DNA from: a virus
Length of the DNA: 64,000 bases
IMG/VR virus record: IMGVR_UViG_3300031851_000014
Location: 4,146 to 68,145 of that record
Strand: one strand, 5' to 3'
The notes beneath the pieces are model-generated. The model made no database searches, was not told the origin of the DNA, and was given only the letters and a program-made list of their open reading frames with translations. This document shows, in pieces, positions 27,301-58,851 of the stretch (positions within the stretch are counted from its first letter, which is position 1; each line of letters begins with the position of its first letter). The position numbers were made by a program, and so were the translations under genes.

Positions 27301-30300
27301 GATGAAGTAGTTCCTCATACTTTATTTGATCAATTAATTAAAGAAGGTATTTCAACAGAGTCAGCCTTTAATGAAGCATATAACTTCTCGTTTGAAGAAC
27401 TTGCTGCCGATGACGCTAGAAGAGGACAAGCTATTCTTGTAGACGAAGAAGGTAATTCACTACTTACTAAAGAACAGCAGACATCACTAAATGAAGCTAT
27501 TGCAAAAGTAGCTGCTATTAGAGATAAAATTAATGAGGGTAATGTTGAAGATTTAAACTTTAATAAAGCAGTTCTTAATGAGTTAGCTGAAGCTTTGGGT
27601 ATTGAAAAGCCTAATAAGATTAAAGATAAAACAAAACTTGCTGCTAAAATTAAAGAAGCTTGGGACAATGCAACTCAAGAACAACGAGATGCGTATGACA
27701 ATATTATTATTGATAGAAACTTTACAGATGATATCTTTAAAAGTAAAGCGACTCAAAACATTGAAGCAGTCATTAGAGAAGCCGTTGAAGAACAAGCTGA
27801 TGATTTAGTTACACGAGAACAACAAAAAGCACGAGATGAAAGCGACGAGTATCAGAATACAACAGATGAAATTGACGAAGCTTTAGCACCGTTCAGGGAA
27901 CAGAAAAGAAATGCAGAAACTGCGCCTAATGCAGATAGGGCAAGATCTAATGAAGCAAGTACTAATTTGATATTACTCGGTTTAGTAGAAGCTAATAAAA
28001 TAAACGATATGCGTACACAAAAGTTTATTAATCTTCTATCAGAAGGACAATTTGGAGCAGCTCTTGAAATGCTTGTGGTGCGTGAAAGCGATGATCCACA
28101 GCAAATAAAAAACAATAAGTGGGCTATGGCTATGGAGAAAGGCATTGGAACGTCACTTTCTGTTAAAGAGATGATGGCAAGGGCTAGGGATGGTAAAGAT
28201 CCTAACGCAGCCCAGTATCTTCGGAGTGAACTTCCTAGAGCGTGGAGAGAAAGAGGCGATGGTCTTAAGATTAATACTATCGAAGTAGATGAACAAATTA
28301 AGTCCGCTAGAGACTATTTAGCGGAGAACGGAACAGATCAACAGAAGAAACATTTCGCTGCTTTAGAGAAAAAACAAAAGAGCCAAAGAGAAGCTATTGA
28401 TCGTATTATTGAAAGTAGAAGACAAGATATTATCGATAGAAAAGTTAGGCTTGCTGCTGAACGTGTTATAGCTGAGTCTAGACCAGCTATTGGATTTGTT
28501 AAACCTATCTTAAAAGCATTGCAGTCTATTAACGGCCATATTATTAGAGCTAAGAACAGCCCTAAAAATGTTACCGGTAGTATTGAAACTGAGTTTTCTT
28601 ACGATATTTCAATCAATAAAGAAGAACTTATTGGTGTTCTTAAAGCTAATAACTTATTGGGATTAATGCTACGAATTGATACTGAATCTGGGGCATTAAA
28701 TAAAAAAGTGGATTCTTACGATTCTAAAATTGTTATGAATGCTCTCCAAGATAAATTAGTCTCAGTAGCACCCGCTTTAAGGGATACTTTTATTCCCGGT
28801 TTACAACGAATTTACGATAATATGTATAACAATAAGATTGATGGAACAGGTCTCTATAAAGGAGATGGATCAATACGAAACTTATTAGATTCCATGGAAG
28901 ACGTATTAGATGAAGAAGCAAGTTTCTATACTACACAGTTTAATAATAACGGAGGTAGGTATTACGATAATAATAATGCTTATACTTTAGATGCTGATTC
29001 TTGGGATAGTGATTTTACTAGAGCTATTAATAGATTAGATTTTGGCGATTACTTTAATGATACTCCGTCAATTACCCCAGAACAAAAAGCAGCTCGTGTT
29101 TTAAATGATTTAAATGATAGTTTAGGGAATAGAAAACTTACTCGTCCTAACGAATTAGGATCAACAAGAGCAGCGTTAGGCCCAAAGAGAGCAGCACGAG
29201 CCGTTAGAAGCGCACTGTTAGGGGAAAAGGCTACTACATCTTCTGTGTCTGAAACGTCTCTCGTGGTCACAGGTGGACGCAGAGAGGCAAAGAGAACCTT
29301 GGGTGCTAATAGAGCAACAGGTATTCAAAAAGAAACTGATAGCCAGCTTATTAATATGTTTGATGAGTACGTTGTTCAAAAACGTCAAGGATATTTCTTA
29401 GATGATGATCTTACTGATGAAGACTTAGATGTATTAGAAAATTGGTTAGAGAACTTAAAAGTCAAAGATATTCCAAATAGAGTTAGAGCAGAAAACAGTT
29501 TGTTACCTACCCCTGTTATTAGATCTTTGACTGAAAAACTTCCTCAAAACATTAAAGAACGGGTTGAGCAAAATAAGATTAATATGCTTAGAAGCGATCC
29601 AGCTTTTATGTCTACAGTTCATGATGCTATTTTCCCTATGTTATCTTCTGAGATTAGTACAAGCGGACAACATTTTGCTTGGAACTTCTCAAAACAAGAT
29701 AAAGATGGGAATACTTTTTATCCCTTTAGGGGATTAGGATTTGGTTTCCCTATTGCAGATGCTAGGCCAGATACAATTAATGCTGCCTTAGCTGCTGCTA
29801 CTGAAATTACCTTTAATTACGAAAACTTAATTTCTACTGCTTTTGAAACATGGAAAAGCGGAAAGTGGCGTAGTAAACTTAAGCCAGAAACACGAGAAAA
29901 CGTCCCCGAAGATATGTCATTTGGTGAATTTTTCTTTGGTGGTGAAATTGAAAAGTTATCTGTAGAAGAACAAAAAGCTATTTCAGAAGAGTTGTTCCCT
30001 ACTATTGGAGAATTCGATGCTGATGCTTCTGGTAATAACGTCATGGTTTCAATTGTTAATGGCGTTGAAGGAGCAGGAGCTACTAGAGATTTCTTATCTG
30101 AATTAGTAAAAGAAGTAGATGCGGGTCGATTAGATGAGTTTTTAGAATCTAACTATAAAACATCTTATGAAAGAACTAAAGAAATTGTTCAAAATGATTT
30201 AAACGATCCTACTACTAGAGAAGCAGTTAAAAAGGCAGCTTCCAGAGGAGAGGCTAGTCCTGATCTTGATGAGGCTATTGAAATTTCAGCTAAAATCTTT

Positions 30301-33300
30301 AATTACGCTGATGCAGACGGTAATCCTTTATTAGATCTTAAAGCAATTATGAAAAATCCTAGTATGACCCAGCCTTACGGGGCGGGAGTAGGATCTATGG
30401 CTAAGGCTATTTATGAAAACTTCTTTGTGACATACAGAGATAAACTTATTAGTGATAATGAGATTCCCCTTACTACATCTAACTTTGAACGTATGGCTAG
30501 AACAGCTTCTCAGTTATTAGCAAACGGTTTTCATGAAAGCTCTGCTAAAGAAGGATTATCTTGGGTTAATACTAACTTGTTTGGTAAAGGCTCAAATATG
30601 AATAACGAAAAGCTTAGAACCGTATTAACTAAGTTTAGAAGCGTTAGGAAAAGCCTTACAGGAGCTTCTACTCTTAGAGGATCAGGGGATGCAATTAAAG
30701 ATCCTACTGGTCTTAGAGCAATGGTTGCTGATAACGAATCAAAACAACAGGAACTTAATTCTATTATTGACGGTAATAGACCCATTGAGTTGTCTGAAGC
30801 TGATTCGTTTAATAACCTTCTTCGTCAAATGATGGGTCAGGCTGTTGTTCTTACTGACAACGGATTTGCTAAAAACAACACTGAGTCAGCAAACGGAATT
30901 AGAAAACTTATTATGAATATGGTAAGAGATGCTGAAGGAAATACAGATCTTCAAGATGCCATTAAAAATAAGAATTATCCTGAAGCCCGTAGATTATGGA
31001 AAGATATTACAGATCAAGATGAGATTAATAATATCAAATTATCGTCTTTAAACAGTTATATTCGTCAGGCACATAAATTCGATTTAGAGAAATTTAAATC
31101 ATTGCTTACATCTTTAGGATTAGAAGAAGAGTTTGCTATGCAAATTTTCGATAATTTATCTCCTATGGGTAGAAAAGCATTTGTTCAAAACTTCTTTAGG
31201 GAATTAGCTATTGGTCCTGATCACGGACGTATCTATACTAAAACTACCGAAGGACCAGATTTATTAATTGAAAAGTTAGTGCGTCCTGATGAAACCGCCG
31301 CTTTTTCAATTGCTGGTATGAAGCCAGATAATCTTTCTCGTGATCCTGAGGTGTTTGACGCTGAAATTAGAAGATTGACTTTACTTGACTTGGCTAAAAA
31401 AGCATCTTCTTTTGTTGAAGACGAAGATATGCCTGTTCTTTCTAAAGGTAAGTTTGAGTCTTCTACTCACGGAGGATTTTTAAACGAGTGGAAAAACCAT
31501 AGTGAATTGTCACGTAAATTAAGAAAAAACGCTAAAGATCAAATTAGACGTATTGATAATCTTTTATTTGAAGATATGGATAACGGACAAAAAGAAAAAT
31601 TAGATGTCCTTAGAAAAATGCTGTCTAAAATTGTTGATAGCGGTACTGATGCAAGAGACGGAACTATTGATGATCTTATGGTAGGTATTACTGGAAGTGA
31701 AATGCAACAGCAGGTTAATGCGCTTCCTAGTGCTTTAGGTTATTTACCTAAAACTTTCTTATCTGACTTTAACGATGCTCCTGCTACTATTCTTCGTAAG
31801 GCTCAGTTAGAGCGAACACAAAACGTTAAAACAATGCGATCTTTAGAGAAACAAATTAAAGACAAAAGAGTTACTGTGCAGCAAGATCCTTTCACAATAG
31901 AAGAATTAGCTTATGTTAAAACATTAGATAATATTGATGATATCAAACCTATTGCTTTTAAATCAATGTTACCTACCTCTGTTTTTGATACAGTAGCATT
32001 AAACATTTCAGATTCTCCTTCATTAAGAACAACTAGAGCTGTACTTCAAACAGAATTAGACAACTTTGTAGATAACGTAAAAAACTTAGGAGGAAACAAA
32101 GTATTAGAAGAAGCAGCATCAAAGGGTAAGTATGATGTTGTATTATTACATTACTTTGCTACATTAGCTAATAAAGAAGCTATGAAGACAAGGCAAGACA
32201 TTGCTTTAGCTTCTTCTGCTTTTGAAAAACAAAAAAGAGATTTTGTTGACTCTTTAGAAGAAACAGACCCAGATAAAATTATTAACGCTATTAAAAACAA
32301 TAGATCATTACAAGATATGGAGAAAAAATTAAATCTTCTTATCGAAGCTTCTCTTTTAGAAGAAGAAAGTACATTACGTAGTTTAACGCAATGGGGATTT
32401 GACGCAAAAAGAAATATTACGGATTTATATGATCTTAGGGGAGAATCGGTTGATTCTGTTTTCCCCGGTCAAACCATTGAAGAAGCTATTCAAAATACTA
32501 TTGTTAATAACGATGTTACAGCCGGTAACTTATTAGCGTGGTTGGCTAACGATGCTGAGTTTTTAGGGCAGGTCTTATTAGACGATCCTAATTCTAGATA
32601 TGTAGATAGCTACGGTGGTGATAACCCTGAACGCGCTTTAAATGCTCTTGGTGTTTTCTCTACTGGTGACTCTCCTTCTTTATACTTAAGTGCTTACGCT
32701 CAAAACTACGCTAAGAGGTATACTGTTTCTGCTATTTTAGGTAAATCACAAGATAAAATTACATCAGCAGAAATTCAAGCTTATAGAATTTGGAAAGATG
32801 CTAAGTATAAGTTAGATTCTGAAACTATGGATCGAATTAAAACAGACTTTCCTGAATTAGTAGAAGCATTAGAAAAACCAGAAAATTTAAAAAACATTCT
32901 TACATTAGAAGCAGAAGGACTTAAGCAAGCTACTAAAGCTTTTGATAATACTGCTTTGTTGTCTGAAATTACTAGAAACATTCCTTTAACAGAATCAGTT
33001 GCTGCCGACCTTTTAGAAAGGTATCCTAATATTGAAACAATAATTGGTAAAGTTAGCCCCGATATGACTCTTGAACGATTACTGTCTAGTAAGTCTGAAA
33101 ACTTACTTGGTGGAAAGCATAAAGCTTTAGTCAATCAGTTTGGAGACGTTACAGCTCCTCATAGAATTATCGGTAATGCTAAAATTAAACTAATGGCGGG
33201 TGAAAAATTAAATACTGTAAACTCAATTGGTAGTAAAGATATGATTGACGCTATAAGGTTTACTTCAACTCTTAGTTTAGAGTCTCTTCCTTTTGGAAAA

Positions 33301-36300
33301 AGTTTAGGAGATAACATTACCGGCCATGACCCATTTACTAAATTTGGATCATCTATTAGTAAAACTCGTAGACAAGCCGCAATTCTTAGTGAGGCTATTA
33401 AAGGTTTAGTTAAAGGTAAACCAGAAGCTGAGTTTGTTGTAGACAAACGAAATAGTTTTATTTCAGAAGGTAAAGCAAAACAAGCAGAGTTTGTTACTTA
33501 CAGTAATGCTCAAATTGAAGCTGCTCTTTCATCAGCAGAACAAACTATGGCACAGGGTATTTTAAGAGATTTAAACTTAACTCCGGTAGAATTAGATAAA
33601 ATCTTTAATACAGACGATAACGTAGCTAGAAATAAAAACGATGTTTACAGAGCTGCTAGACTTGTCCCGTTTTTATCTGAAAATAGCTCTGAATATAATA
33701 TCTTTAAAAAACAACAAGCCATTAAAGACAGTTTAAAAGGAAAACGAGCTGTTAATGATTTAGATGCGTTTAACGATTTTAAAGATAATGTTCTTCCTAT
33801 TTTAACAGAAATTAAAAAAGCTATTCAAACTAAAAAACAAAATGCAATTAAAAACGATCCAGATTTTAAAAGCAATGATATTAACAGTGTTGATCTTGTT
33901 GATGATTGGTTTACTAGTACTATTAGAAGTGCCGATATAGCTGATGATAACAACACTCCTGTTGTTAACGGTAATCAAGTGTATGACAGTCAATCTGTTG
34001 AATCTGCAAAAGTAGGAGCGGTAGCTAAAGCAGAACAAACTTCTCTTTTAGATAGAACAGACGGCAGTGAAGCTATGAAGGGAGTTAATACGGTAGACTT
34101 TGCGTTTAGCGATAAACAGTTTATTGATAATGGTCCCGAACACCTTAGATTTATTGAAGCTATTAACCCTCTTGTAACAAGAGGCGTTTTAACTAACGAT
34201 GATAAATTACTTCTTAAGATTGTTTTTAATGATAGGTCTAACAATACAATGTTAAAGCAGTTGTTTGATGAAGATGATTCTGTTACTATGGTAGCTAACG
34301 ACGCTAATGTCAGTTTATCAGATACAAGTGCAGCAACACTTAGAACAAGAATTGAAGTAGCTAACAATTTAGCTAAACAATTTGATAAAATCGGTAAGTT
34401 AGGTGCTGCTGGGGTTGTACTAGAAGAGTTAGGCCACGCTATTGGTAAACGAATGAGTAAAGACGGAATGCAATCGTTTATCATTAGAGCAAAGCAGTTA
34501 TTAAAAGATGAAGACGGTTTTAATGCTTTTATAGCTCTTGAAAAAGAATTATTTGGTGCTGAAACTAGAGTAGATTATAGTAACAGAGTTGAACACATTC
34601 GTAAATTTATTGATGAAGAAGACATTAAAGCGGTACGTAGTAATGAAACTTTTGGTATTTTATTCGCTATTACTTCTATTTTAGGGAAAGATACACGAGC
34701 TTTACTTAATGAGGATACTGATATACTTGCTAAATTGTATAGTGATTCTAATCATTATATTTCTCGTTTGCGTTCTTATTATAGTGTAGCCGAATCTTCT
34801 CCTGTAAGTATTGATGATCTTACTCACCCTATGAATATTGAGGCTAATTTACATAAAGTTGTTTATAATAATCCAGACGAGATTTCAAGCGAGATGATTG
34901 GAGGTGACCCTCGTCCAGATTTTAAACCCAACCATTTATATAATAGAGCCACAGAAGTAGGAACACTTCCAGAACAAAGAGAAGCATATTTAGATGAAAA
35001 CATTAAAGCTGCTACTATAGCAGATGGTAGGTTTAATCCTAATTTATTAGATAATAATACACAAAATAAATTAAGAGCTGTCACAAAACATTTAGATAGT
35101 TTCGTTAAAGATGCTAGTAAAGGCACTCTTATTGATAGTCCTATGTTTACTCTAATGGCTAATGCTTCTATGGGATTAATGTCAAGACAAACTGTTGAAA
35201 AACTTATGCTTAATTTAGCGCAGCCATTTGGGGCAAGACGATTTGCGTTTTTAGCTAACAATAAAGATGGGCAGTCTGGTATTTCTTTACTGTTATTAGG
35301 AATGGTCGATACAAAAAATCTTGTGTCTACATCATCTTTTAATACCGCTCTTCCTACTATGCAAGGACTTCAAGTTCATTTAGATGGTGTTTTTGAACCT
35401 CTTATGAAACCTTTGTTAGATCTTAAAAGAATTAACTCTACTAGAGGTATGACAGGCGTTGCTTCTTATCAAGCCTTTACAGGACTCTTTTGGAAAATGG
35501 TTATGAACAGAGACGGCGATTCAGGAGCAATTACAGGATGGGCCGGTAAAACTAAAGCTAAACAAATCGGTATTGCTGAATTAGATAAAATCTATAAAAA
35601 AGCAAACGAAGAACTTCCTTTTGATCCAGAAACAGGCAAAATTACTGATCCTGAATTAGATCATACATTAGATATCTTAGTTGAAACCGCAAGAGCTTGG
35701 GCTGATCCTAAAGATGGTGTATATCAACAAATTTTAACGGCTCAAGTTGATAACGGTAGGTTTGATTCTACCTTTGCAGCGGAAGCTATTATGAGTGGTG
35801 TTGTCCCTATTAAATTTGCTGATGAATTATTTACAAGAGGTGAAATGGCTAATAATCCTGATCTAAGAGAAACATTTAGAAAAGCCTTTGCTGATCATTT
35901 ATACAGCACAATGACAGACAGAAACAATAAATTTATCCACGAAGATTTATTTTCTTTAGTTTTTGCTGATAGGCTAGAAGGAGATATTGATGCTCCTACT
36001 CGTATTACCGGAATGGATTTAGCTAGTGGTGTTTACCAGAAGTATTTAGACGAAGCTTCAACACCCGCTGATGCGTGGGCTAACTTTACAAATGATATAA
36101 AACAAGGTAAACTGAGCAAATATGATTTATTAAGCGGAGAAGAGTTACAATATTTTTACGAGTCGATTAACCAAGAAAATATTACCGTATCAGAAAAACA
36201 GAATAAAATGATGAATAATATCGAAAATAGGCTTGATAGTAAGACACCTAGATCTGGTAAAAAATCATCTTCTAGTGCTAACAAAGAAAGACTTATTGAG

Positions 36301-38370
36301 TTTGTAGCAGAAGAGTATGCTTTAACATCTGGTTCTTCTGCCTATAGTTTCATAAACGATAGGTTTGTAGATAACGCTAGACTTTTAGATGATCCTAACA
36401 TTGAGAGGTTTCTTAATGTTGACCCGCTTGAAGTTTTTGATGCTGTCAAACGAGGTCAAGCAGGACAAGCCTTTGATAGGCAAATTGTTGGTAATGCTTT
36501 AGGTATGCAAGGATTTGGCGTAGGTGATTTAATTAGATTACTTCGATACGCTAATGAAGACTCTACTTTTAAACCTGAACATGTTATTGTAAACTCTAAT
36601 TTACAGGGTTATGAAAAGAGAACTTTAGGTAAAACAGAGCAACAAAAATATTCTAAAGTTTTAGAGTATTTAGAAGATGCCTACCATATGGCTATGGGTA
36701 ATTTGTCTTACGATAAGACAGATAAAAGTTCTATTGGTTTTATTAGTATGCTTACTACTATTGCTGACGCTGGTACAGCTTTAAGTGTTGGCCCTCGTTT
36801 AGGCATGGCGGCATTACTTGAAGAAACCCCTATGGCTATTATCGGTGAACTTAAATCATCCTTAGATTCTATTAGACAAGAAGGGCGTGAATCTATTGGC
36901 TTCTTTAAAAACTTAGGAAACAGAGAAGCTCTTCAACAGTGGATCCAAGGAATGGGACATATTACCAGAGATTTACAACGAGAGTCTAGTACTCTTATGT
37001 TAAAGATGGGTATCGACCCTAAGCAAATTAGTCAAAACAGAGCAGACAAAGCTGTCCAACGAATGTATAAAGTTTCATCTACAGGATTAGATTATCAAAC
37101 AGCCATTAACCGCGCCCGTGGTGTTAGGAAATGGATTAATGAATTAAACTCTATGTTTGTAAATGAGGCTAATGCAGATATTTCATTTACTCATTCGGAT
37201 GGTCATACTGTTTCTGTTTCTTCTCGAAACCTTAAAAGTAACGCATCCTTTGATACGGTTTACGAAGTTGTGCAAGGAATGGGAGATCTTACTCGTTATA
37301 CATCTACTGAAATTAAAGATAATTTAAAACAACTTAAACTTTCTGCTGAAACATTAGATGCTGTTATTGACATGATGAGAAATGGTTTATTCTCAGAAGA
37401 GTTAGCTCCTATCTTTAAAAAACTTTGGTTAGAAAACTACAATACCATAATTAAACAAGGAATCCCATTTGAAGAAATGATGAAAACAATTAACTTTGAT
37501 TATAATTCTTCAGCTAAAGAAAGAGCGCAAACATCTCAGGTTATCATGGCTCTTAGAGAAATTGCCTTTAATGCGTCAACCAGATACGCTAAACAGCCTA
37601 CTCTTTCAGAGAATGCTGCTTTAGGTTCTAGAAGACTTGGTGCTTTCTCTAGGTTAGTTACTCAATTAACAAACTATGCCTCATCTGTGTTTGGGTCATT
37701 GAGAAAAGCGCAAACTGTAAGCCCAGCGTTATTTGCCTCAGCTTTCTTAGGTCACGCTATATCGGGATACATGTATTATAAGTTAGTTCAAATGCAAAAC
37801 TCTAAGACTTTTGAAGAAATTCTAAAAGAATGGGAAAAAGACCCTATGTCAGAAATTAGAGATGCCCTAATGTCAGTTCCTTTCTTTGGTATGAATCAAA
37901 TGCCTATTGTGGCTCTTACACAGGTGTTGCGAGGAGAAAGACCTCAAAACACCCAGATATTTAACTTTGCTTCGTTGGCTATGATTAATAAGATTCTTCA
38001 GTTACCCGCTAAAACAATGAAAAGCGTTGGTGATATTCAAGAGGGTAATATCTCACGCGGCGCAGCTAACATGTCATCTACTGTTCCCTTACCGTTTATG
38101 CCTATTGTGTCACTCGGGTTAAGGTCTTGGGATACTAAGATGCCTTTGTTTGGATTTAAAGATAATTCTAAGAAAATACAAAGACCTAAAAATCCTCCAA
38201 AGATTACTAAGTCTACGCCTGCTACAACTTCTGCAACGGAACCAAATGTAGATGCAATGAGACAGCGTAAACCTGAGACGACACCACGTCAGGAATTAGA
38301 CAGTCTTAATACGACTCCTGAGAGTCTAACAGAAGCTCTTAATCAAAGGTTTATACCAAAGCCATATTAA
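24385..38370 (+). CDS. Giant ejection protein (gp16 position, 4661 aa) with an embedded single-subunit RNA polymerase-like domain (putative virion RNAP)
   Basis: Motif A-like GEFDADASGNN (30007-30039); motif B-like KAIMKNPSMTQPYG (30340-30381); Gly-rich membrane-active N-terminal segments; no Cys seen. Confidence 0.7.
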   Translation: MPINFSSENYSKNAVDFYNSVQQEKMNEIFKTPKLSDITEQYEQRVKNTSFALQYGMAAEAALDEEEAKTVSEEYDNIMYNSFAPFRLDPKEVNERIARDNRESLRMIKVANEAGIENLRFEGGEEFKKTIQYAMAFPLTAPNVMNNRLIGYVPDNLGGTFYDLSESWSEASYTNAINAHKVMSMFGQVPESVSRGASMTIADDQTKGSIKMLLDMIKKENATFDPSYDENFVLRQSEAMALEDSVSWNKNAGFFEGAGRFLVSSFDTLGGAFTNFGDDGPVLDFLGYKDKIWMGDKETEGIRDLLLNAIETSDNLDPKIKDWLSNNPDVLDLLKNSSNGAAFTAGLNEKRFQYKAAVLEQETQGNKTFGAYAKIFGHGFMLDPTLGLDIAATIGTGGLKAGGMITRGGLRATGRLLSLGTSKQLASRTGLLTRLNRQSIAALTRESKFFRLSNFLKKGTDQLSLLQKVMPTQILSELLVPLSRRLLTSGKDEGVDLLTYLKGNDYLPKSVTGKAMYRAIAGSVEGLVWGRIEYSYAAAYEDSLNVAMFGQEQADVLSYMRNQSGAMTQSMLMGGVMGGLLGPAIGGTFDAAGASVTGTANLINKWSEVSPDNWLNKTTAFAEKNFNERIAKTSWWNVTKSIINVATENNMTADARLSVNKAIPKIEFGQTDESASNSARTLEEKLYQLSEKSHNSGAVNFQKAVDEVVNSIPEGETVSAEAFTIRVENALVNQVQDRAIRLGLRYTLVTGTVKTLTDFESDAKRNELTNDGKPAEPVTKTEGNEFSVEAERLAEVKKTKETELAAEEEKIEKLREALAAKREANKNNPDEADTEGVAKLEEEIKEASTTIENMDKDIKEVGLQVAQAAANYAATNKESVITNQAVFNKLLKEKLLDDINKQEDMHPIAAMMLFGMDETLVRKMKNGATLEQKAVLDKLLALNPDDAPLDSNEIASLKDVIEDNFLEEIGKGDEVVPHTLFDQLIKEGISTESAFNEAYNFSFEELAADDARRGQAILVDEEGNSLLTKEQQTSLNEAIAKVAAIRDKINEGNVEDLNFNKAVLNELAEALGIEKPNKIKDKTKLAAKIKEAWDNATQEQRDAYDNIIIDRNFTDDIFKSKATQNIEAVIREAVEEQADDLVTREQQKARDESDEYQNTTDEIDEALAPFREQKRNAETAPNADRARSNEASTNLILLGLVEANKINDMRTQKFINLLSEGQFGAALEMLVVRESDDPQQIKNNKWAMAMEKGIGTSLSVKEMMARARDGKDPNAAQYLRSELPRAWRERGDGLKINTIEVDEQIKSARDYLAENGTDQQKKHFAALEKKQKSQREAIDRIIESRRQDIIDRKVRLAAERVIAESRPAIGFVKPILKALQSINGHIIRAKNSPKNVTGSIETEFSYDISINKEELIGVLKANNLLGLMLRIDTESGALNKKVDSYDSKIVMNALQDKLVSVAPALRDTFIPGLQRIYDNMYNNKIDGTGLYKGDGSIRNLLDSMEDVLDEEASFYTTQFNNNGGRYYDNNNAYTLDADSWDSDFTRAINRLDFGDYFNDTPSITPEQKAARVLNDLNDSLGNRKLTRPNELGSTRAALGPKRAARAVRSALLGEKATTSSVSETSLVVTGGRREAKRTLGANRATGIQKETDSQLINMFDEYVVQKRQGYFLDDDLTDEDLDVLENWLENLKVKDIPNRVRAENSLLPTPVIRSLTEKLPQNIKERVEQNKINMLRSDPAFMSTVHDAIFPMLSSEISTSGQHFAWNFSKQDKDGNTFYPFRGLGFGFPIADARPDTINAALAAATEITFNYENLISTAFETWKSGKWRSKLKPETRENVPEDMSFGEFFFGGEIEKLSVEEQKAISEELFPTIGEFDADASGNNVMVSIVNGVEGAGATRDFLSELVKEVDAGRLDEFLESNYKTSYERTKEIVQNDLNDPTTREAVKKAASRGEASPDLDEAIEISAKIFNYADADGNPLLDLKAIMKNPSMTQPYGAGVGSMAKAIYENFFVTYRDKLISDNEIPLTTSNFERMARTASQLLANGFHESSAKEGLSWVNTNLFGKGSNMNNEKLRTVLTKFRSVRKSLTGASTLRGSGDAIKDPTGLRAMVADNESKQQELNSIIDGNRPIELSEADSFNNLLRQMMGQAVVLTDNGFAKNNTESANGIRKLIMNMVRDAEGNTDLQDAIKNKNYPEARRLWKDITDQDEINNIKLSSLNSYIRQAHKFDLEKFKSLLTSLGLEEEFAMQIFDNLSPMGRKAFVQNFFRELAIGPDHGRIYTKTTEGPDLLIEKLVRPDETAAFSIAGMKPDNLSRDPEVFDAEIRRLTLLDLAKKASSFVEDEDMPVLSKGKFESSTHGGFLNEWKNHSELSRKLRKNAKDQIRRIDNLLFEDMDNGQKEKLDVLRKMLSKIVDSGTDARDGTIDDLMVGITGSEMQQQVNALPSALGYLPKTFLSDFNDAPATILRKAQLERTQNVKTMRSLEKQIKDKRVTVQQDPFTIEELAYVKTLDNIDDIKPIAFKSMLPTSVFDTVALNISDSPSLRTTRAVLQTELDNFVDNVKNLGGNKVLEEAASKGKYDVVLLHYFATLANKEAMKTRQDIALASSAFEKQKRDFVDSLEETDPDKIINAIKNNRSLQDMEKKLNLLIEASLLEEESTLRSLTQWGFDAKRNITDLYDLRGESVDSVFPGQTIEEAIQNTIVNNDVTAGNLLAWLANDAEFLGQVLLDDPNSRYVDSYGGDNPERALNALGVFSTGDSPSLYLSAYAQNYAKRYTVSAILGKSQDKITSAEIQAYRIWKDAKYKLDSETMDRIKTDFPELVEALEKPENLKNILTLEAEGLKQATKAFDNTALLSEITRNIPLTESVAADLLERYPNIETIIGKVSPDMTLERLLSSKSENLLGGKHKALVNQFGDVTAPHRIIGNAKIKLMAGEKLNTVNSIGSKDMIDAIRFTSTLSLESLPFGKSLGDNITGHDPFTKFGSSISKTRRQAAILSEAIKGLVKGKPEAEFVVDKRNSFISEGKAKQAEFVTYSNAQIEAALSSAEQTMAQGILRDLNLTPVELDKIFNTDDNVARNKNDVYRAARLVPFLSENSSEYNIFKKQQAIKDSLKGKRAVNDLDAFNDFKDNVLPILTEIKKAIQTKKQNAIKNDPDFKSNDINSVDLVDDWFTSTIRSADIADDNNTPVVNGNQVYDSQSVESAKVGAVAKAEQTSLLDRTDGSEAMKGVNTVDFAFSDKQFIDNGPEHLRFIEAINPLVTRGVLTNDDKLLLKIVFNDRSNNTMLKQLFDEDDSVTMVANDANVSLSDTSAATLRTRIEVANNLAKQFDKIGKLGAAGVVLEELGHAIGKRMSKDGMQSFIIRAKQLLKDEDGFNAFIALEKELFGAETRVDYSNRVEHIRKFIDEEDIKAVRSNETFGILFAITSILGKDTRALLNEDTDILAKLYSDSNHYISRLRSYYSVAESSPVSIDDLTHPMNIEANLHKVVYNNPDEISSEMIGGDPRPDFKPNHLYNRATEVGTLPEQREAYLDENIKAATIADGRFNPNLLDNNTQNKLRAVTKHLDSFVKDASKGTLIDSPMFTLMANASMGLMSRQTVEKLMLNLAQPFGARRFAFLANNKDGQSGISLLLLGMVDTKNLVSTSSFNTALPTMQGLQVHLDGVFEPLMKPLLDLKRINSTRGMTGVASYQAFTGLFWKMVMNRDGDSGAITGWAGKTKAKQIGIAELDKIYKKANEELPFDPETGKITDPELDHTLDILVETARAWADPKDGVYQQILTAQVDNGRFDSTFAAEAIMSGVVPIKFADELFTRGEMANNPDLRETFRKAFADHLYSTMTDRNNKFIHEDLFSLVFADRLEGDIDAPTRITGMDLASGVYQKYLDEASTPADAWANFTNDIKQGKLSKYDLLSGEELQYFYESINQENITVSEKQNKMMNNIENRLDSKTPRSGKKSSSSANKERLIEFVAEEYALTSGSSAYSFINDRFVDNARLLDDPNIERFLNVDPLEVFDAVKRGQAGQAFDRQIVGNALGMQGFGVGDLIRLLRYANEDSTFKPEHVIVNSNLQGYEKRTLGKTEQQKYSKVLEYLEDAYHMAMGNLSYDKTDKSSIGFISMLTTIADAGTALSVGPRLGMAALLEETPMAIIGELKSSLDSIRQEGRESIGFFKNLGNREALQQWIQGMGHITRDLQRESSTLMLKMGIDPKQISQNRADKAVQRMYKVSSTGLDYQTAINRARGVRKWINELNSMFVNEANADISFTHSDGHTVSVSSRNLKSNASFDTVYEVVQGMGDLTRYTSTEIKDNLKQLKLSAETLDAVIDMMRNGLFSEELAPIFKKLWLENYNTIIKQGIPFEEMMKTINFDYNSSAKERAQTSQVIMALREIAFNASTRYAKQPTLSENAALGSRRLGAFSRLVTQLTNYASSVFGSLRKAQTVSPALFASAFLGHAISGYMYYKLVQMQNSKTFEEILKEWEKDPMSEIRDALMSVPFFGMNQMPIVALTQVLRGERPQNTQIFNFASLAMINKILQLPAKTMKSVGDIQEGNISRGAANMSSTVPLPFMPIVSLGLRSWDTKMPLFGFKDNSKKIQRPKNPPKITKSTPATTSATEPNVDAMRQRKPETTPRQELDSLNTTPESLTEALNQRFIPKPY

Positions 38371-38390
38371 AAAACCCACAGTATAACAAA
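38368..38390 (+). promoter_or_regulatory. Repeated promoter-like motif, copy 1 (TAAAAAACCCACAGTATAAC)
   Basis: Recurs at 43639, 52344 and 58832. Confidence 0.55.
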
Positions 38391-39152: not shown

Positions 39153-39710
39153 ATGACTAACGTCACCACTACCGCTATCACCTCCCTCAAAAAAATGTAC
39201 GAAGTTACCCGACGCTTTATTAGCGACTGCGAGTTTGTTTACCGAACAGAAGGTACGGAAGGAGCTAAGATGATGGCTGATGATTATAGGAAGGATATCG
39301 AGAAGATTGAAGGAGAGATTCTTGATATCATGCTGTCAACAGATGCCTACATGACTCCTAAGAATTGGAAAGATGCCCGCGAAGCTAACGACTCGTTGAC
39401 ATGGTTTGACGAGGAACTTACTCAGAAGTGGACTGAGCCTTCGGATACTATTGGTTCAGGTGTGCGACAAATGGGTTCAGTTGAAGTGGTTGTAGGTGGA
39501 GTGACGTACACGTTCTCTACTGTCCTGATGTTCGATCTCGGTGAAGATTCGGCATTTTATTATCACACAGTTGTTTGGGCGAACGGTGAGTCCGTTGACG
39601 AAAGTTCGCGAGAAAGTAGTAACTATCAAGAGGCTGCTAACTATGGTGAAATTCTGATGGAAATCGTCTGCGAAGAAGACGATGATTCTGACGATCCCTC
39701 ACAGGGCTAA
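39153..39710 (+). CDS. First early gene, acidic hypothetical protein (185 aa)
   Basis: GAAAGGAG RBS; strongly acidic. Confidence 0.7.
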   Translation: MTNVTTTAITSLKKMYEVTRRFISDCEFVYRTEGTEGAKMMADDYRKDIEKIEGEILDIMLSTDAYMTPKNWKDAREANDSLTWFDEELTQKWTEPSDTIGSGVRQMGSVEVVVGGVTYTFSTVLMFDLGEDSAFYYHTVVWANGESVDESSRESSNYQEAANYGEILMEIVCEEDDDSDDPSQG

Positions 39711-39724
39711 TCGCCCGGCCCTGC

Positions 39725-39760
39725 ACAAGCCCACCCTCTACCGAGGGTGTCGCTTGTTTT
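39725..39760 (+). terminator. Bulged stem-loop with T-tract
   Basis: ACAAGC..CACCCTC-TACC-GAGGGTG..GCTTGT-TTT. Confidence 0.5.
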
Positions 39761-39793
39761 CTTCCACTATCACGTGTCTCGAAAGGACATACA

Positions 39794-39877
39794 ATGATTA
39801 ATATTATTGCTCTGATTGTGCTTATTGTTGTTTGTGCTGTTATGACTTTTCTTCCTCTTATTGATACTGACGACTGA
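39794..39877 (+). CDS. Single-TM micro-peptide (27 aa)
   Basis: Read manually: MINIIALIVLIVVCAVMTFLPLIDTDD; GAAAGGA RBS. Confidence 0.55.
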   Translation: MINIIALIVLIVVCAVMTFLPLIDTDD

Positions 39878-39888
39878 AGGAGGTGTAC

Positions 39889-40104
39889 ATGATGTATGCC
39901 CTCAAGCAGTGTGTGTTGGCCTTGGTGGCCTTCCTTTCTTTTTCGGTGGGTTTCGGTATGATTCTCTTTCTGGCGTCGTTCAGAGAGACTGCCGAGTATG
40001 GTGTCGTGAGCATGCTTATGCTCGGGTACGCCCTCATCTTCGTGATGAGTGGCCTGCTGCTCGGAAGAGCCGTCATCCTTAGATTGGAGGCTGACAAGAG
40101 CTGA
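39889..40104 (+). CDS. Small two-TM membrane protein
   Basis: AAGGAGGT RBS; two hydrophobic helices. Confidence 0.65.
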   Translation: MMYALKQCVLALVAFLSFSVGFGMILFLASFRETAEYGVVSMLMLGYALIFVMSGLLLGRAVILRLEADKS

Positions 40105-40109
40105 TAGCG

Positions 40110-40141
40110 TAACTCTGCTCCCCTAACGGGGGGCGGGGTTA
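40110..40141 (+). other. Long GC-rich hairpin (terminator or RNase III-like site)
   Basis: TAACTCTGCTCCCC-TAAC-GGGGGGCGGGGTTA. Confidence 0.5.
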
Positions 40142-40280
40142 TTTCAGAAAGGAGATCAAGGATGATCTCAGACACGGATGTCACTTTCACTCTGTTTTAC
40201 TTTTGGTTTCATTGGATCACGCATCGTGCGTGGCTCTAATGTGCCTTCCACTATCATCCCCAATGGGAAAGGTTTTTACT

Positions 40281-40832
40281 ATGTTTCACCCGAACTCAAA
40301 CGCAACTATCACTTGGAAGAAGAATGCCAAAGAGTACGATGTTATTCGTTACTCGATTGGCGATCAGGACGCATTCAGTCAGCGTTGGAAGTTTGATGAC
40401 TGCCGCAATGAGTGGCGACCCCACTATCACATGGTTCGTTACATGTGTCTCAAGGAGCTGGAAGCCAGCCTCTGGAGTTTGATGACAAATGGAAACAAGA
40501 AGTTCAGGGACCACGTTCACACGGTTTCGTCCACTCCTCACGATCATCCCTCCACTATCAGGGAGCTTCGGCTCAAGGCTGTGCGGACGGATCATCATGT
40601 CACTGATCTGGGCATTCGGACCACAGGTGAGCCTGCGCTGATCTATGCCCGCAAGGTGTTGGCGGGTATGAGCAAGAGAATTAAGCATGTCACCGCTGTG
40701 GCGACTGACAAGCACGGCAACAAGGCGCACTTCAACGCCTACCGTGACTTTGAGCGGTCATCACACATGCTGTTTGTCGATAAGTTCGGCAACCGTGTGT
40801 CCCGTCACAACATTTCTACCATTGTCGGCTAA
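40281..40832 (+). CDS. Early hypothetical protein
   Basis: GAAAGG RBS before ATG 40281, in frame with ORF 40203..40832. Confidence 0.65.
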   Translation: MFHPNSNATITWKKNAKEYDVIRYSIGDQDAFSQRWKFDDCRNEWRPHYHMVRYMCLKELEASLWSLMTNGNKKFRDHVHTVSSTPHDHPSTIRELRLKAVRTDHHVTDLGIRTTGEPALIYARKVLAGMSKRIKHVTAVATDKHGNKAHFNAYRDFERSSHMLFVDKFGNRVSRHNISTIVG

Positions 40833-41120
40833 TATGACGGACCTCCCCCAAGAGTTCCGCTCAAGACCCCTCAAGACCACCCGCACCAAGACCCCTTGCG
40901 GCTGTTCCACTATCATCCTCCTTGGGAAGGTCTCGCACAATCCCCCGTGGGAAGGCCAAGCCGTAGGATCCTCCCTAAGACCCCCGACCATCAAGTGGGG
41001 TCTCGGGTCATCTTTATCATTCAAAGCCCTCAGGCGGCCTCTCCGGGCCTCTGTAGGGATTCTTGGGACTGCCTTGCGTAAGGTGGCCCCTGCTTATTTC
41101 TTTCCGAAAGGTTATCTCCA

Positions 41121-41378
41121 ATGTACGAATGCAGTGATATCGATCTTCTTATCGTCCGTCGTATGCTTGCGGCTTCCACTGAGGACTGGGTGTCTGCTTC
41201 GATTCGGCAGATCAATGGTGTCTCGGTGGTCTTCACTGGTTGTGTGAAGAATCCCGATTTTCCTGAGGAACCTGATTTCCTCGGCGGCGTGGATTTGTTC
41301 TCTCTTCGGGAGAGCTTGGAACCCGGTGAGTTTGATCTGTTGATTCAGAAGATGGACGAGTTCGAGGTATCCAATTAA
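41121..41378 (+). CDS. Early hypothetical protein
   Basis: GAAAGG RBS. Confidence 0.65.
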   Translation: MYECSDIDLLIVRRMLAASTEDWVSASIRQINGVSVVFTGCVKNPDFPEEPDFLGGVDLFSLRESLEPGEFDLLIQKMDEFEVSN

Positions 41379-41403
41379 CCCTGTTTCTTAGAAAGGAAAC
41401 ACA

Positions 41404-41787
41404 ATGCGTGACCATACTAGAAAATTGGCGCAGACCCGCAATCGCGTCGGTTCAACAATCAAGTCTCTTGAAGAGACACAAAAAGAGATCAAAGACAATT
41501 TGATCAGACTCAGAAGCATCCTGAATGAGACCCAAGGCTACGACTACGATGATGTGGTCGAATTCAGATTGCCTGTGGGAATCCTCCGTGATATGTCGGA
41601 CAGGATGCTCCGAAAGCTCACGGATCGTCGAGAGGAGATCGGCCCAGAGATTCAGGAAGCTAAGGAAACTTGGGGTCAACTGGACGAGCGTCTTGAAAAA
41701 GAGATCACCAAAGAACTTAAGACTAAAGGGATTTCACCAGCAGAAATTGAATTTATTCATGACTTTATAACAGGAGGTAAACAATGA
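41404..41787 (+). CDS. Early coiled-coil hypothetical protein
   Basis: GAAAGGA RBS; heptad-like composition. Confidence 0.7.
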   Translation: MRDHTRKLAQTRNRVGSTIKSLEETQKEIKDNLIRLRSILNETQGYDYDDVVEFRLPVGILRDMSDRMLRKLTDRREEIGPEIQEAKETWGQLDERLEKEITKELKTKGISPAEIEFIHDFITGGKQ

Positions 41788-42011
41788 ATCAGAACACGGG
41801 CGACACTTGGGTTTACTCAGACAGCAAGAAAGAGTTCCCTGATTCTCACAGGTGGTGGGGGGAATTGCTTTGGTATCTTAGTGAACAAATTCACTGGAAA
41901 GTAGGTCCACCGACTCCCAAGTTTGTCAACAGAATCAAGGAGTATGGGGACAAGTGTCCTTATAATGATATTAAACGAGACATTCTAAAACTTTTGAAAG
42001 GAATCCAATGA
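41784..42011 (+). CDS. Early hypothetical protein
   Basis: AGGAGGT RBS; ATGA overlap. Confidence 0.65.
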   Translation: MNQNTGDTWVYSDSKKEFPDSHRWWGELLWYLSEQIHWKVGPPTPKFVNRIKEYGDKCPYNDIKRDILKLLKGIQ

Positions 42012-43638: not shown

Positions 43639-43660
43639 TAAAAAACCCACGTTATAATAA
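43639..43660 (+). promoter_or_regulatory. Repeated promoter-like motif, copy 2 (TAAAAAACCCACGTTATAAT)
   Basis: Intergenic, upstream of an AAGGAG RBS; flanked by the inverted repeat GGAAAGTAG/CTACTTTCC. Confidence 0.65.
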
Positions 43661-47921: not shown

Positions 47922-48077
47922 ATGTACGGTAAAGGAGATAAGTATAGAGATGTCGATAAGAAAAAATACGATAAAGAGTACGATAAAATTTTCGGTAAGA
48001 AAAAGTTAAACAATATAGAAAGTAATTCTAAATGCAAACATGGAAAGACCACACGAAAGAAGAACAAACGAGGCTGA
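47922..48077 (+). CDS. Basic micro-protein (GKGDK.R.VD...Y...YDKIF family)
   Basis: AAGGAGGT RBS. Confidence 0.65.
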   Translation: MYGKGDKYRDVDKKKYDKEYDKIFGKKKLNNIESNSKCKHGKTTRKKNKRG

Positions 48078-50578
48078 TTAATCTTCAGCTATCGAATGAA
48101 GATCGTGCTGCTAACCAATCAATTAGTAAGTACCTTCATAACGTTAACCATAGCCCTTCGTCTTCTCCTCGTGAGAAGGAATTTGTATTTGATTACAGCG
48201 AGTACTTAGCTAACTACTTAGAGTGGACAGAAGAACAATACAAAGACATTAAGAAGAAACCTTATTGGCTTACCATTGCGCAACTGCTTGGACCTGAGCG
48301 TTGTGCTTGTATTGTTGTAAAGGTATTGTTAGATAGTTGCTTGTCATCTAGGTTGATTCAAACTGCTGATGGTATTAAGTACGACAGTAATAACTTAGGT
48401 GACTTCAAGGGACAGACTAAACAAAGTGTACTCAGTCGCATCGCCCGTGAGTTGTGGCTTGCCATTGGTATTAGAACAGCTAAAGAACATTACTCTGAAG
48501 ATTTCTTTAGACAATCACATTACTTTAAGAACTGGAATAAGAAACGTATGAAAGCGTTTGCTAAGAAATGCCAGACGTTACCTGAATGGGATAACAAAAA
48601 AAGAAATGTAGTTGCACTGTCGTTCTATGCCCTTATGGTAGGTGACCAAGATAGTGTGATGCCTTTTGTTGATGATACTATTACTATTGTTAAGAACAAT
48701 CAGATTAAGAAGTATACTATTGTAACTCTTCGTGATGAGTTTACTAAGAACTTTGAAGAGTTCCATGCGTTCTATCAATACTACAAGTGGTTGTATTACC
48801 CTATGGTATCACCTCCTATCCCACACCAATGGCCTTGTAGTACACCAGATCAATACGGTGGCTCATTAAACATCGAGTATAGAAAGTCTTCTATCCATAA
48901 CTCTCGTGCTGGTAGTTACCATAAGAATAACTCACAGCATTCCAAATCTTCAGCAGAAACGTTGAACAACTTGCAACAAACAGAGTGGCGAGTAAACAAA
49001 CGTGTGCTAAAAGTACTAGAAAACCTGTATAAATCTAACAACCTAGTATGTAACTTACCACCCTTCGAGTTGGATGAATTTGTTTTCTCTGATCCTTATC
49101 CTGAAGAAGGAACTAAAGAGGAAGTAGGCAAGTGGAAACAAAAGAGAACAGAGAGCTGGGGTGAATGGGAGAAATCAAAACAAAAGAGAATGCAAATGGA
49201 AATGCGTTTGCTTATTGCTAATGACTTAGGTGATTTAAACTTCTATCATGCTTACTCATGTGACTTTCGGGGTCGTGCTTACACACAGTCAACCATCTTA
49301 TCACCTCAGAGTGGTGACTTTGATGCGGCACTGATTGAGTTCTCTAACCCAACAAGAGTAACCGATAAAGGTTTGTATTGGATTAAAGTTAATGTAGCTA
49401 ACCTATGGGATCAAGATAAGATACCATTCGATGATCGCGTTAAGTGGGTAGATGATAACATAGACATGTTAAGTCAAGTAGCACAGTTTCCAGAAGAAAC
49501 AGTAAGGTTGTGGGAAGATGACAAGAAGAAAAAAAATGTATCTTTTCGTAGACTTGCTGCTACTTTTGATTTGTTCTACGCTATTAATCTTAAACTATCT
49601 TATATACCAGTTCATTTGGACGGCACTTGTAACGGCATTCAGCACTGGGTTGCTGCTATGCTTGATGAAGCCTTGGCACCTTACGTAAATGTATGTGATA
49701 CACCCAAGCCCGGTGACATGTACAACTTTATTGCTGAGATGTCAACAAACAAAATGCTTGCTGAACGAACAGAAAATGATTACTTTGAGTTGTTCTTAAC
49801 GCACTGGCAAGAAACTACTGACGACGAAAAGATGCCTCGTAACCTACCTAAGCGCACAGTTATGTGCGACCCTTACGGAGTTACATACTACTCAGCACGT
49901 CAGTACATACGATCAGAGGGGCACCTTGACTGGTGTCGTGAGATGCTTGAGCCAAGAGGGTTGAGCTGGCAAGGAGCTATTGTTGAGTGTACCTCAGTCA
50001 TCTGGGAATCATTACAAGAAGCTTTGATTAAACCTAACCTAGCCAAGGAGTATATTAAAAGTTGTGTTGAGTTATGTTATAATGATGACGAAAGAAAAAA
50101 GAAACCACTTGAATGGGTGACACCTAATGGTTTTAAAGTTAGACAGTACTACACTGAACACATTGAGTATATTACTGATATAGCTTTATTACTTAAGAAC
50201 GATGTACGCATTCGACACACAGCAGAGATGTGGCAGTTCACTGATGAAATGAATCCACGAAAGATGATGACTGCAATCCCACCTAACTGGGTGCATTCAT
50301 TAGACGCAGCCCACATGAGCATGGTAGTCAATTACCTGTCTCGTGCAGGATGTAAAAACTTTTCTATGATTCACGATAGCTTTGGTGTTACTTGTGACTT
50401 TGCTGAACAACTGTGTGAAGTAGTAAGGATAATGTTTTATGAGATACATAAAGAGAACCAACTCGTTAAATTCAAACAAAGTATTGAAAACTTTGTGGAA
50501 CACCCAGTCCCCGATCCTCCCGAAAGAGGCAGACTTGACGCAGAAGAAATCCTTAGATCCACCTATCTCTTCAACTGA
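48032..50578 (+). CDS. T7-type single-subunit DNA-directed RNA polymerase
   Basis: DFRGR, motif A LDGTCNGIQH, motif B RNLPKRTVMCDPYG, PPNWVHSLDA, motif C IHDSFG, C-terminal YLFN. Confidence 0.97.
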   Translation: MQTWKDHTKEEQTRLINLQLSNEDRAANQSISKYLHNVNHSPSSSPREKEFVFDYSEYLANYLEWTEEQYKDIKKKPYWLTIAQLLGPERCACIVVKVLLDSCLSSRLIQTADGIKYDSNNLGDFKGQTKQSVLSRIARELWLAIGIRTAKEHYSEDFFRQSHYFKNWNKKRMKAFAKKCQTLPEWDNKKRNVVALSFYALMVGDQDSVMPFVDDTITIVKNNQIKKYTIVTLRDEFTKNFEEFHAFYQYYKWLYYPMVSPPIPHQWPCSTPDQYGGSLNIEYRKSSIHNSRAGSYHKNNSQHSKSSAETLNNLQQTEWRVNKRVLKVLENLYKSNNLVCNLPPFELDEFVFSDPYPEEGTKEEVGKWKQKRTESWGEWEKSKQKRMQMEMRLLIANDLGDLNFYHAYSCDFRGRAYTQSTILSPQSGDFDAALIEFSNPTRVTDKGLYWIKVNVANLWDQDKIPFDDRVKWVDDNIDMLSQVAQFPEETVRLWEDDKKKKNVSFRRLAATFDLFYAINLKLSYIPVHLDGTCNGIQHWVAAMLDEALAPYVNVCDTPKPGDMYNFIAEMSTNKMLAERTENDYFELFLTHWQETTDDEKMPRNLPKRTVMCDPYGVTYYSARQYIRSEGHLDWCREMLEPRGLSWQGAIVECTSVIWESLQEALIKPNLAKEYIKSCVELCYNDDERKKKPLEWVTPNGFKVRQYYTEHIEYITDIALLLKNDVRIRHTAEMWQFTDEMNPRKMMTAIPPNWVHSLDAAHMSMVVNYLSRAGCKNFSMIHDSFGVTCDFAEQLCEVVRIMFYEIHKENQLVKFKQSIENFVEHPVPDPPERGRLDAEEILRSTYLFN

Positions 50579-58834: not shown

Positions 58835-58851
58835 AAAACCCAGCTATTAGC
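58832..58851 (+). promoter_or_regulatory. Repeated promoter-like motif, copy 4 (TAAAAAACCCAGCTATTAG)
   Basis: Upstream of the nrdJ RBS; slightly degenerate. Confidence 0.5.

Follow-up and report, generated by a model that had tools for sequence, protein, structure and literature searches.

Promoters of the T7/SP6 class comprise about 19-23 conserved bp, with an A/T-rich block near positions -17 to -13 and with CACTAT as their core. T7-type phages normally begin infection from left-end promoters read by the host polymerase, and the phage polymerase transcribes the late genes. Some phage sigma factors, such as that of phiEco32, use a single short element. T4-type phages possess promoter-early stem-loop cassettes (PeSLs), which carry host sigma-70 early promoters and mediate a modular shuffling of early genes. 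In N4, an injected polymerase acts first and is followed by a second phage polymerase, and the promoters are single-stranded DNA hairpins extruded by supercoiling, as outlined in the accessible part of PMC13434306. Here a 12-nt repeat, YTCCACTATCAY, is described as a candidate promoter of a phage encoding a T7-like gene set. The analysed stretch, called the window, has 64,000 nt and corresponds to bases 4146-68145 of the 68,145-bp IMG/VR virus record IMGVR_UViG_3300031851_000014 (CheckV completeness 99%); near-identical DNA is present in marine/seawater metagenomes of three studies, not counting the possible source sample. The + strand carries every long open reading frame (ORF) of the window, and PHROG and Pfam scans identify both replication genes (gp2.5-like SSB, RusA, primase/helicase, DNA polymerase, exonuclease, and ribonucleotide reductase) and virion and packaging genes (portal, tail proteins, and large terminase).

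Copies, conservation, and surroundings of the repeat

The 9-nt core of the repeat, CCACTATCA, occurs six times in the window, always on the + strand, against 0.44 copies expected, and 0 of 100 shuffles reach six; the full record likewise contains six forward and no reverse copies. These class-1 copies start at 39764, 40248, 40421, 40552, 40907, and 60349, five of them within 1.2 kb (Table 1). The cluster falls in a zone where the G+C content rises from 0.33-0.36 to 0.45-0.50 directly after the ORF of a 4661-aa protein (end 38370), 7-8 kb upstream of the gene for an 848-aa T7-type RNA polymerase. An earlier note on this DNA had listed the five clustered copies. They are exact and on the + strand, its coordinates lying 2 nt to the left since the TT/CC/CT prefix was included, and the sixth copy was absent from its list. 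The near-copies it named are present as well, at 39172 and 40303, but one-mismatch copies are no more frequent in the window than chance predicts (13 vs. 13.1 expected), so that these two carry no weight. The motif is conserved in an all-or-none manner, exact copies being enriched and those with one mismatch not.

Two complete relatives, G001 (72,875 bp) and G002 (71,591 bp), whose polymerases are 69-70% identical to that of the window, carry six copies of CCACTATCA each, all on the coding strand. In both, the corresponding GC-rich zone contains a cluster of four copies; a fifth is closer to the polymerase gene, though not at the same place in G001 as in G002, and the sixth is found at a homologous site in the reductase gene. 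In the three genomes pooled there are 18 copies, compared with 0.42 expected from a third-order Markov model, and 18 of 18 are on the coding strand. CCACTATCA is the most over-represented word common to the three genomes, with no other shared word close to it, and TCCACTATCA was seen 17 times vs. 0.11 expected by the same model. Two further over-represented shared words, ATGGTTATG and CTCCGGGC, were rejected, as they lie mostly in conserved coding sequence. Enrichment over background and conservation in relatives, both named as checks by the earlier note, are thereby confirmed. The logo of the 18 sites shows T at -1, a pyrimidine at -2, and a pyrimidine directly 3' of the motif, in 17 sites each; further than 2 nt in the 5' and 1 nt in the 3' direction from the 9-mer, the information content equals the background.

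The comparison set comprises four to five lineages in all, and a scan with the polymerase profile gave no further loci. The fragment G004 has one exact copy and one TTTTCTATCAC variant in the same setting, and G002 has a second variant of this type; these two TTTTCTATCAY variants show the same architecture as the sites followed by a Shine-Dalgarno sequence and a start codon. Three copies are found in a fifth, mosaic lineage, L092. The pattern TTCCACTATCA-N6-10-GAAAGG matched 32 stretches in IMG/VR, of which only L014, L072, and L092 are members of the clade; 28 of the 32 are single-copy, as expected by chance, and L080, with two copies, is unrelated. In a full-text literature search for CCACTATCA the matches listed concern primers or unrelated topics. 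The reductase-gene copy (site 6) occupies a homologous place in four genomes, with its synonymous positions unchanged: all four codons are unchanged in the four genomes, compared with 5 of 23 flanking conserved codons (P = 0.007 in a post hoc test, in which one genome of the four closely resembles the window, leaving effectively three lineages).

In six of the 18 sites, GAAAGG or GGAAGG is present at +7 to +10, with a start codon following at +21 to +24. At site 1, GAAAGG is at +8 and the ATG, at +21, opens a 27-aa ORF (39794-39877). The start codons which the earlier note had placed behind the copies at 39764 and 40248 do lie 21 and 24 nt after them, each behind GAAAGG. Upstream, a hairpin of at least 5 bp is present within 45 nt of 13 of the 18 sites, whereas for randomly chosen positions of this GC-rich zone the number is 7.0 +/- 2.0. 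The gap between hairpin and motif is 3-30 nt, often T-rich and terminator-like, and the module of hairpin, tail, and motif, ca. 55 nt in size, recurs in four lineages (with G001, G002, and G004) between unrelated genes. The extension shared by the copies at 40246 and 40905 (24 nt, 88% identity) and the recurrence near 40941 (a 16-nt repeat, 40915/40940) are real, as the earlier note had it. The TCCC-N4-GGGA mini-hairpin that it read in them is not a component of the signal: it is weak (-4.6 kcal/mol, z +0.56, with 139 of 200 shuffles folding as well; z -0.66 for the stretch 40914-40960), and its stem is lineage-specific, being absent after the copies in the G001 and G002 lineages. Since this hairpin is neither stable nor conserved and the upstream hairpins stand at a variable distance, 3-30 nt away, the signal is not a hairpin promoter of the N4 type.

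The copy at site 5 is the best conserved of all. The motif lies 175-196 nt 5' of a near-invariant element in eight of eight loci with upstream sequence, and the element ends with a hairpin and TGCTTATTTC. In the window the non-coding unit behind site 5 contains hairpins at 41029-41058 and 41065-41090, the second followed by TGCTTATTTCTTTCC and terminator-like. The two hairpins tolerate G-U/A-U and C-G/G-C exchanges, with one fully compensatory pair only among the 3-6 sequences compared, and the stability of the unit is not unusual against shuffles (z -0.48). Rfam has no family for it; in the Rfam search of the window two tRNAs alone reach the gathering score, and two sub-threshold matches overlap them. 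The element is present in 7 of 35 metagenome stretches matching a 17-mer. The unit could be a small RNA or the leader of a conserved 85-aa gene at 41121.

Every available sequence test agrees with a promoter-like, strand-specific signal of the early region and supports it. We consider it probable that YTCCACTATCAY is a promoter for a phage polymerase, of the single-subunit type, because its copies are confined to the coding strand, enriched (18 vs. 0.42), and all-or-none, and because of their spacing to the Shine-Dalgarno sequence and start codon, the excess of upstream hairpins, and, for the site-5 copy, the distance of 175-196 nt to the terminator-like element. The motif is also kept between unrelated flanking genes, and sigma-70-like sites are not enriched. 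Transcription would start near the 3' end of the motif. Self-contained units would result, each with an upstream terminator hairpin, the promoter, a leader of ca. 20 nt with a Shine-Dalgarno sequence, and a small gene, and one copy would head a conserved non-coding RNA or leader ending in a terminator-like hairpin.

The same anatomy might instead be that of a non-promoter element, acting as an RNA processing site, as a 5'-leader element for translation or stability, or as a protein-binding site, such as an operator or antitermination site after terminators. The Shine-Dalgarno sequence at a fixed 7-10 nt in 6 of 18 sites, the invariable location of the motif on the transcribed strand, and its frequent position directly after a hairpin with a T-run all suit such a role. 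RNA-library contigs cross site 5 (X21, 40759-41087; X23, 40557-41027) and could represent read-through transcripts or DNA carry-over, the 24 sequencing runs examined being assembled contigs in which starts, ends, and strand of the molecules are not visible. Uncovered parts and the depth values of X21 and X23 were set aside as evidence. This explanation is nevertheless unlikely: 10 of the 18 exact copies have no Shine-Dalgarno sequence in the 60 nt scanned 3' of the motif, and 12 have no start codon behind one. The best conserved copy heads a non-coding unit, no conserved secondary structure including the motif was found, and no known RNA family matches.

If the motif were read by the polymerase of the host, using either the host's sigma factor or the 202-aa sigma-like protein of the phage, this would correspond to the normal left-end start of T7-type phages. 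CACTAT keeps the A at position two and the T at position six of a -10 hexamer, a sigma-like gene is present, and phage sigma factors with a single element are known from phiEco32. However, the class-1 motif has no -35 element at a fixed distance and no extended -10, the base after TATCA varies (C in 10, T in 7, and G in 1 of the 18 sites), and the all-or-none conservation is unlike that of host promoters. Sigma-70-like sites are not enriched in 38300-48100 (19 vs. 15.2 expected), and none of the 19 listed has its second hexamer over the class-1 motif. The sigma-like protein, a weak third candidate for the reader, reaches no more than 30-31% identity among the lineages possessing the motif and scores below the Pfam cut-off. 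Involvement of the host enzyme is thus very unlikely.

The hypervariable early block

The block that harbours the clustered copies is private to each lineage. None of its ORFs has a homologue in G001 or G002 (blastp, 1e-5), one is 37% identical to an ORF of G004, and IMG/VR contains no relative of the 183-aa or the 185-aa early ORF. The counterpart blocks of G001 (22672-25900) and G002 (30228-33900) are equally private, with the flanking genes shared, and blastn of 38400-42400 against phage records gave no match. The block is likely the site of host-takeover or counter-defence genes, and the promoter units proposed above would make up this hypervariable, probably first-expressed part of the genome.

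In every lineage the motif and the hairpin module flank non-homologous cassettes, and the copies are situated in the GC-shifted region immediately behind the last structural gene. This placement would be explained by a signal at the level of the DNA, close to the genome end, i.e. a recombination joint for cassettes or a packaging, replication, or entry signal. Contigs of other samples tend to end or change at the copies: X2 and X3 match the window at a likeness of at least 99%, and X2 ends at 39776 and restarts at 40912, X3 consists of the pieces 39759-40021 and 40253-40917, while the likeness of X23 to the window stops at 39763. Such breaks are a weak indication that, in natural populations, the copies represent mosaic joints. 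The irregular spacing, the strict link with gene starts, and the conserved reductase copy 20 kb away misfit an origin, a pac site, or a terminal-repeat array, and a DNA-level signal as the function of the motif is the least probable of the explanations considered. A role as a recombination joint is compatible with promoter function and is probably secondary to it. End repeats were looked for in the 68,145-bp record and none were found. The G001 contig carries the same terminase region at both ends (261/71975 and 1120/72834), so its assembly closes on itself and the listed ends are not physical ends.

A conserved element, GGGGTCAGGAATTTACA...GGGG (39065-39106), stands ahead of the first private ORF, not only in the window but also in G001 and G004; it has a 24-nt partial repeat (79%) 606 nt upstream (38477-38500) and may be a further regulatory site. 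Upstream of it lies an ORF (38468-39064, probable start ATG 38528) with a hydrophobic N-terminus, 50-83% identity in all lineages, and two short D-L-x-x-L-L-x-x-W-type repeats recognized by eye; it has no Pfam or PHROG match. Between the block and the polymerase gene are the accessory genes ThyX (44535-45269) and DUF932 (45700-46680), a fragment resembling the citrate synthase C-terminal domain (46797-47330; PF00285, E 7.6e-9), and two tRNA genes, tRNA-Lys(TTT) (46707-46779) and tRNA-Leu(TAA) (47681-47765).

Candidate polymerases and a second motif class

Among the 2,746 matching records of cultured phages, the identity to the 848-aa polymerase does not exceed 26%. A second motif class, AAAAACCCA-N2-3-TAT, in full (T)AAAAAACCCA-N2-3-TAT(A/T), occupies four homologous intergenic places in each of the genomes compared (the window genome G000, G001, and G002). 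Its TAA is the stop codon of the upstream gene in three cases, and its 3' half is TATAA in the window vs. TATT in G001 and G002, changed in concert. Class 2 is thus a candidate for the promoter read by the other phage enzyme, and the numbers agree, there being two polymerases for two motif classes, which might be paired either way. Directly after class-2 site a, at the border of the GC rise, there is a 16-bp inverted repeat (38395-38432, 94%) followed by an AT-rich stretch, which may be a late terminator or lie close to the physical genome end.

The second candidate enzyme probably resides, as an N4-like polymerase domain, inside the 4661-aa protein. This protein contains no cysteine in its 4661 residues, and neither does any of the six homologues found in a library of 1.84 billion proteins; one of them, P0005, is not in IMG/VR, and tblastn against 50,697 phage records gave no match. 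The adjacent 1408-aa protein (20147-24373) also lacks cysteine, while the 2221-aa protein has 91; the former has no blastp homologue in G001/G002, where a protein of similar size occupies the same place. The residues invariant in the seven homologues form the polymerase-like motifs D-x-D-x-S-G-x-N, K-x3-K-x3-M-T-x2-Y-G, and I-x-D-S. The fragment used for testing comprised residues 1331-2500 (28375-31884), and hhalign against a profile of seven N4-like mini-vRNAPs aligned its residues 539-692 (29989-30450) with N4 mini-vRNAP 548-702, a matching position (score 43.9, E 8.9e-4). Twelve reversed or column-shuffled controls scored at most 21.0 (E 0.39 or worse), and the T7-type polymerase of the window gave E 0.52 with the same profile. 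K656, K660, and Y668-G of the fragment align with N4 666, 670, and 678-G, and D548, D550, S552, and G553 are invariant. The aligned stretches, which we take to be the catalytic motifs A and B, thus agree with the mini-vRNAP in order and position. In a language-model comparison, each of the closest clusters contains an RNA_pol or N4 vRNAP family (scores 0.86-0.89), which the tool rates as leads only. The idea of a polymerase domain in the giant protein, raised earlier, gains support from the alignment, the invariant motifs, and the absence of cysteines. A cysteine-free giant protein has also been proposed as the virion polymerase of phage StenR_269, on weaker grounds than in the present case, as judged from the accessible part of the source (PMC10747016).

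Our tentative preference is for this domain as the reader of the class-1 promoters. It would enter together with the DNA and use these promoters ahead of all phage gene expression, on a duplex or melted template and without a hairpin of the N4 type, and the 848-aa enzyme would then use AAAAACCCA-N2-3-TAT for the middle genes. An injected reader is favoured because the class-1 copies lie in a private, probably earliest block and their motif is compact, and because class 2, with its layout of A-rich, specificity, and TAT parts and its place before replication genes, fits the 848-aa enzyme. The invariant motifs, the hhalign match, the language-model clusters, the lack of cysteines, and the N4 precedent point the same way. 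Moreover, an early reader that has to express the 848-aa gene would explain why G001 and G002 independently gained an extra copy upstream of it.

Several observations weigh against this assignment. The motif is identical across lineages in which the giant-protein domain is 24-26% identical and the 848-aa polymerase 69-70%; with a domain so diverged, promoter specificity would be expected to have drifted. Class 2 has drifted (TATAA to TATT) and class 1 has not, which alone would pair class 1 with the better-conserved enzyme. The constrained copy at the entrance to the structural module (in the post hoc test above) suits a late-acting enzyme. There is no fixed hairpin as in N4, and after the copy at 40907 the window has no further class-1 copy before the polymerase gene (start 48032), with terminator-like hairpins in between. 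Neither the fragment nor the whole protein has a polymerase match in PHROGs, Pfam (E 0.01, E 10), or the PDB (phmmer, profile). The ExDGxxxG signature is replaced by DADASGNN. The AlphaFold model of the fragment, built from a 7-row alignment, has a pLDDT of 48.9, too poor for a fold test, and Foldseek of this low-confidence model against the PDB returned meaningless matches only (best E 0.29). The assignment of the repeat to a virion polymerase is unsupported in the form given by the earlier note, the 848-aa enzyme being better conserved and a conserved copy lying at the start of the structural module.

Some of these points suit the 848-aa polymerase as the reader of class 1, a possibility that we consider real but rather doubtful. 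The left-end cluster, as a set of strong phage promoters upstream of the polymerase gene, would then provide positive feedback and read-through, the reductase-gene copy would be a late promoter, and the injected domain or the host enzyme would start from other sites, e.g. class-2 site a. The 848-aa enzyme is the best-conserved candidate (69-70%, vs. 24-27% in the giant and 30-31% in the sigma-like protein), matching an invariant motif, and the conserved, constrained copy marks the entry to the structural module. The core also resembles the CACTAT of T7/SP6 promoters, and near-identical, strand-specific copies are typical of such promoters. However, only 11-12 nt are conserved, with no A/T-rich upstream element, five of the six window copies lie upstream of the polymerase gene, in the earliest-looking block, and class 2 is more T7-like in layout and stands before replication genes. 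No copy lies directly before the capsid gene, whose 150 upstream nt are conserved but different. This stretch is near-identical in the three genomes and contains neither motif class. It could represent another kind of control region, the third and a late one, with a possible link to the sigma-like protein.

Table 1. Positions of the motif sites and other features (window coordinates, unless stated otherwise)
Feature	Position	Strand	Remarks
Class-1 site 1 (TTCCACTATCAC)	39762..39773	+	intergenic, 14 nt after terminator-like hairpin
Class-1 site 2 (TTCCACTATCAT)	40246..40257	+	GAAAGG at +10; ATG of 183-aa ORF (40281-40832) at +24
Class-1 site 3 (CCCCACTATCAC)	40419..40430	+	within 183-aa ORF; no start codon behind
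Class-1 site 4 (CTCCACTATCAG)	40550..40561	+	within 183-aa ORF; reading frame differs from site 3 (from coordinates)
Class-1 site 5 (TTCCACTATCAT)	40905..40916	+	heads conserved non-coding unit; kept in every lineage examined
Class-1 site 6 (TTCCACTATCAT)	60347..60358	+	within ribonucleotide reductase gene (58869-60764), 415 nt before stop
Terminator-like hairpin	39732..39763	+	7-bp stem, loop TACC, T-rich tail; directly upstream of site 1
Conserved non-coding unit	40917..41105	+	5' half variable; 3' ~100 nt nearly invariant in 4-5 lineages
Hypervariable block of small ORFs	39153..42011	+	contains all five clustered class-1 sites
Class-2 site a (AAAAACCCA CAG TATAAC)	38370..38389	+	directly after giant-gene stop codon
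Class-2 site b	43641..43660	+	40 nt before conserved 123-aa gene (43681)
Class-2 site c	52345..52364	+	5' of SSB, RusA, primase/helicase, DNA polymerase block
Class-2 site d	58834..58850	+	35 nt before ribonucleotide reductase start codon
4661-aa cysteine-free protein, candidate ejected protein	24385..38370	+	end of structural module
848-aa T7-type single-subunit RNA polymerase	48032..50578	+	phrog_414 E 2.3e-148; PF00940 E 2.2e-73
202-aa sigma-factor-like protein	51083..51691	+	phrog_351 E 3.9e-9; Sigma70_r4 21.3 bits, cut-off 24.1
150 nt upstream of major capsid gene	genome 511-656 (upstream of window); G001 49430-49579; G002 upstream of 57832		

Comparison with known systems

Combined, these elements yield a picture that we put forward as speculative and, as a whole, rather unlikely to hold in every part: a marine T7-like clade would inject a polymerase domain that uses a hairpin-independent 12-nt promoter, and then employ a T7-type polymerase with a second promoter class, the promoter modules serving as recombination joints that shuffle anti-host cassettes. 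If true, the clade would stand between the strategies of T7 and N4 as an evolutionary intermediate, and if the domain is active, polymerase injection would extend beyond N4-like and crAss-like phages to a T7-like chassis. Pairs of phage promoters and polymerases underlie widely used expression tools and reveal how a cell is taken over; here two short, sharply defined candidate promoters and two candidate polymerases are available for pairing, in a clade with no cultured member and with the low polymerase identity to cultured phages given above. With the motif, moreover, one can recognize the limits of a hypervariable block of small genes, where functions in host takeover or counter-defence are likely, and a conserved non-coding unit with no database entry. 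In the literature searched, supplements not being covered, and as far as the accessible parts of the sources go, neither a T7-like genome with both polymerases nor the class-1 motif is described.

Among the systems compared, a bacterial sigma-70 promoter differs in its -35/-10 pair at 16-18 nt and its invariant last T of the -10, both of which the class-1 motif lacks. The PeSLs of T4-type phages are similar in that a module of terminator hairpin and promoter lies between non-homologous small early genes of relatives, but the class-1 motif is not sigma-70-like, and recombination is here inferred from mosaicism only. With T7/SP6 promoters the motif shares the near-identical copies on the transcribed strand only, a cognate PF00940 polymerase encoded in the same genome, the CACTAT core to which the earlier note points, and the arrangement of terminator followed by promoter. 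It differs in having 11-12 conserved positions and no A/T-rich upstream block, and in that most copies lie upstream of the polymerase gene, with one of six per genome downstream, in the reductase gene before the structural genes; the polymerase itself is far from that of any cultured phage (identity not above 26%).

By analogy, the system would work most like the N4 cascade. In N4 the polymerase lies within a protein homologous to internal virion protein D of T7, according to the accessible part of PMC4819975, and ExDGxxxG is the N4-family signature that defines N4-like viruses, according to that of PMC10654107. Unlike gp50 of the Schitoviridae, the giant protein has neither this signature nor a Pfam vRNAP/RNA_pol match. 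The two systems also differ in that the hairpins seen here vary in position and conservation is limited to a linear word of 12 nt, the replication and structural genes are T7-like and on one strand, and the second polymerase is a single 848-aa chain. As with the N4 promoters P1-P3, which are read by gp50, there are few copies, at what may be one genome end, heading small early genes; the reader would be a domain in a giant, cysteine-free ejected protein, and a second phage polymerase would serve the middle genes.

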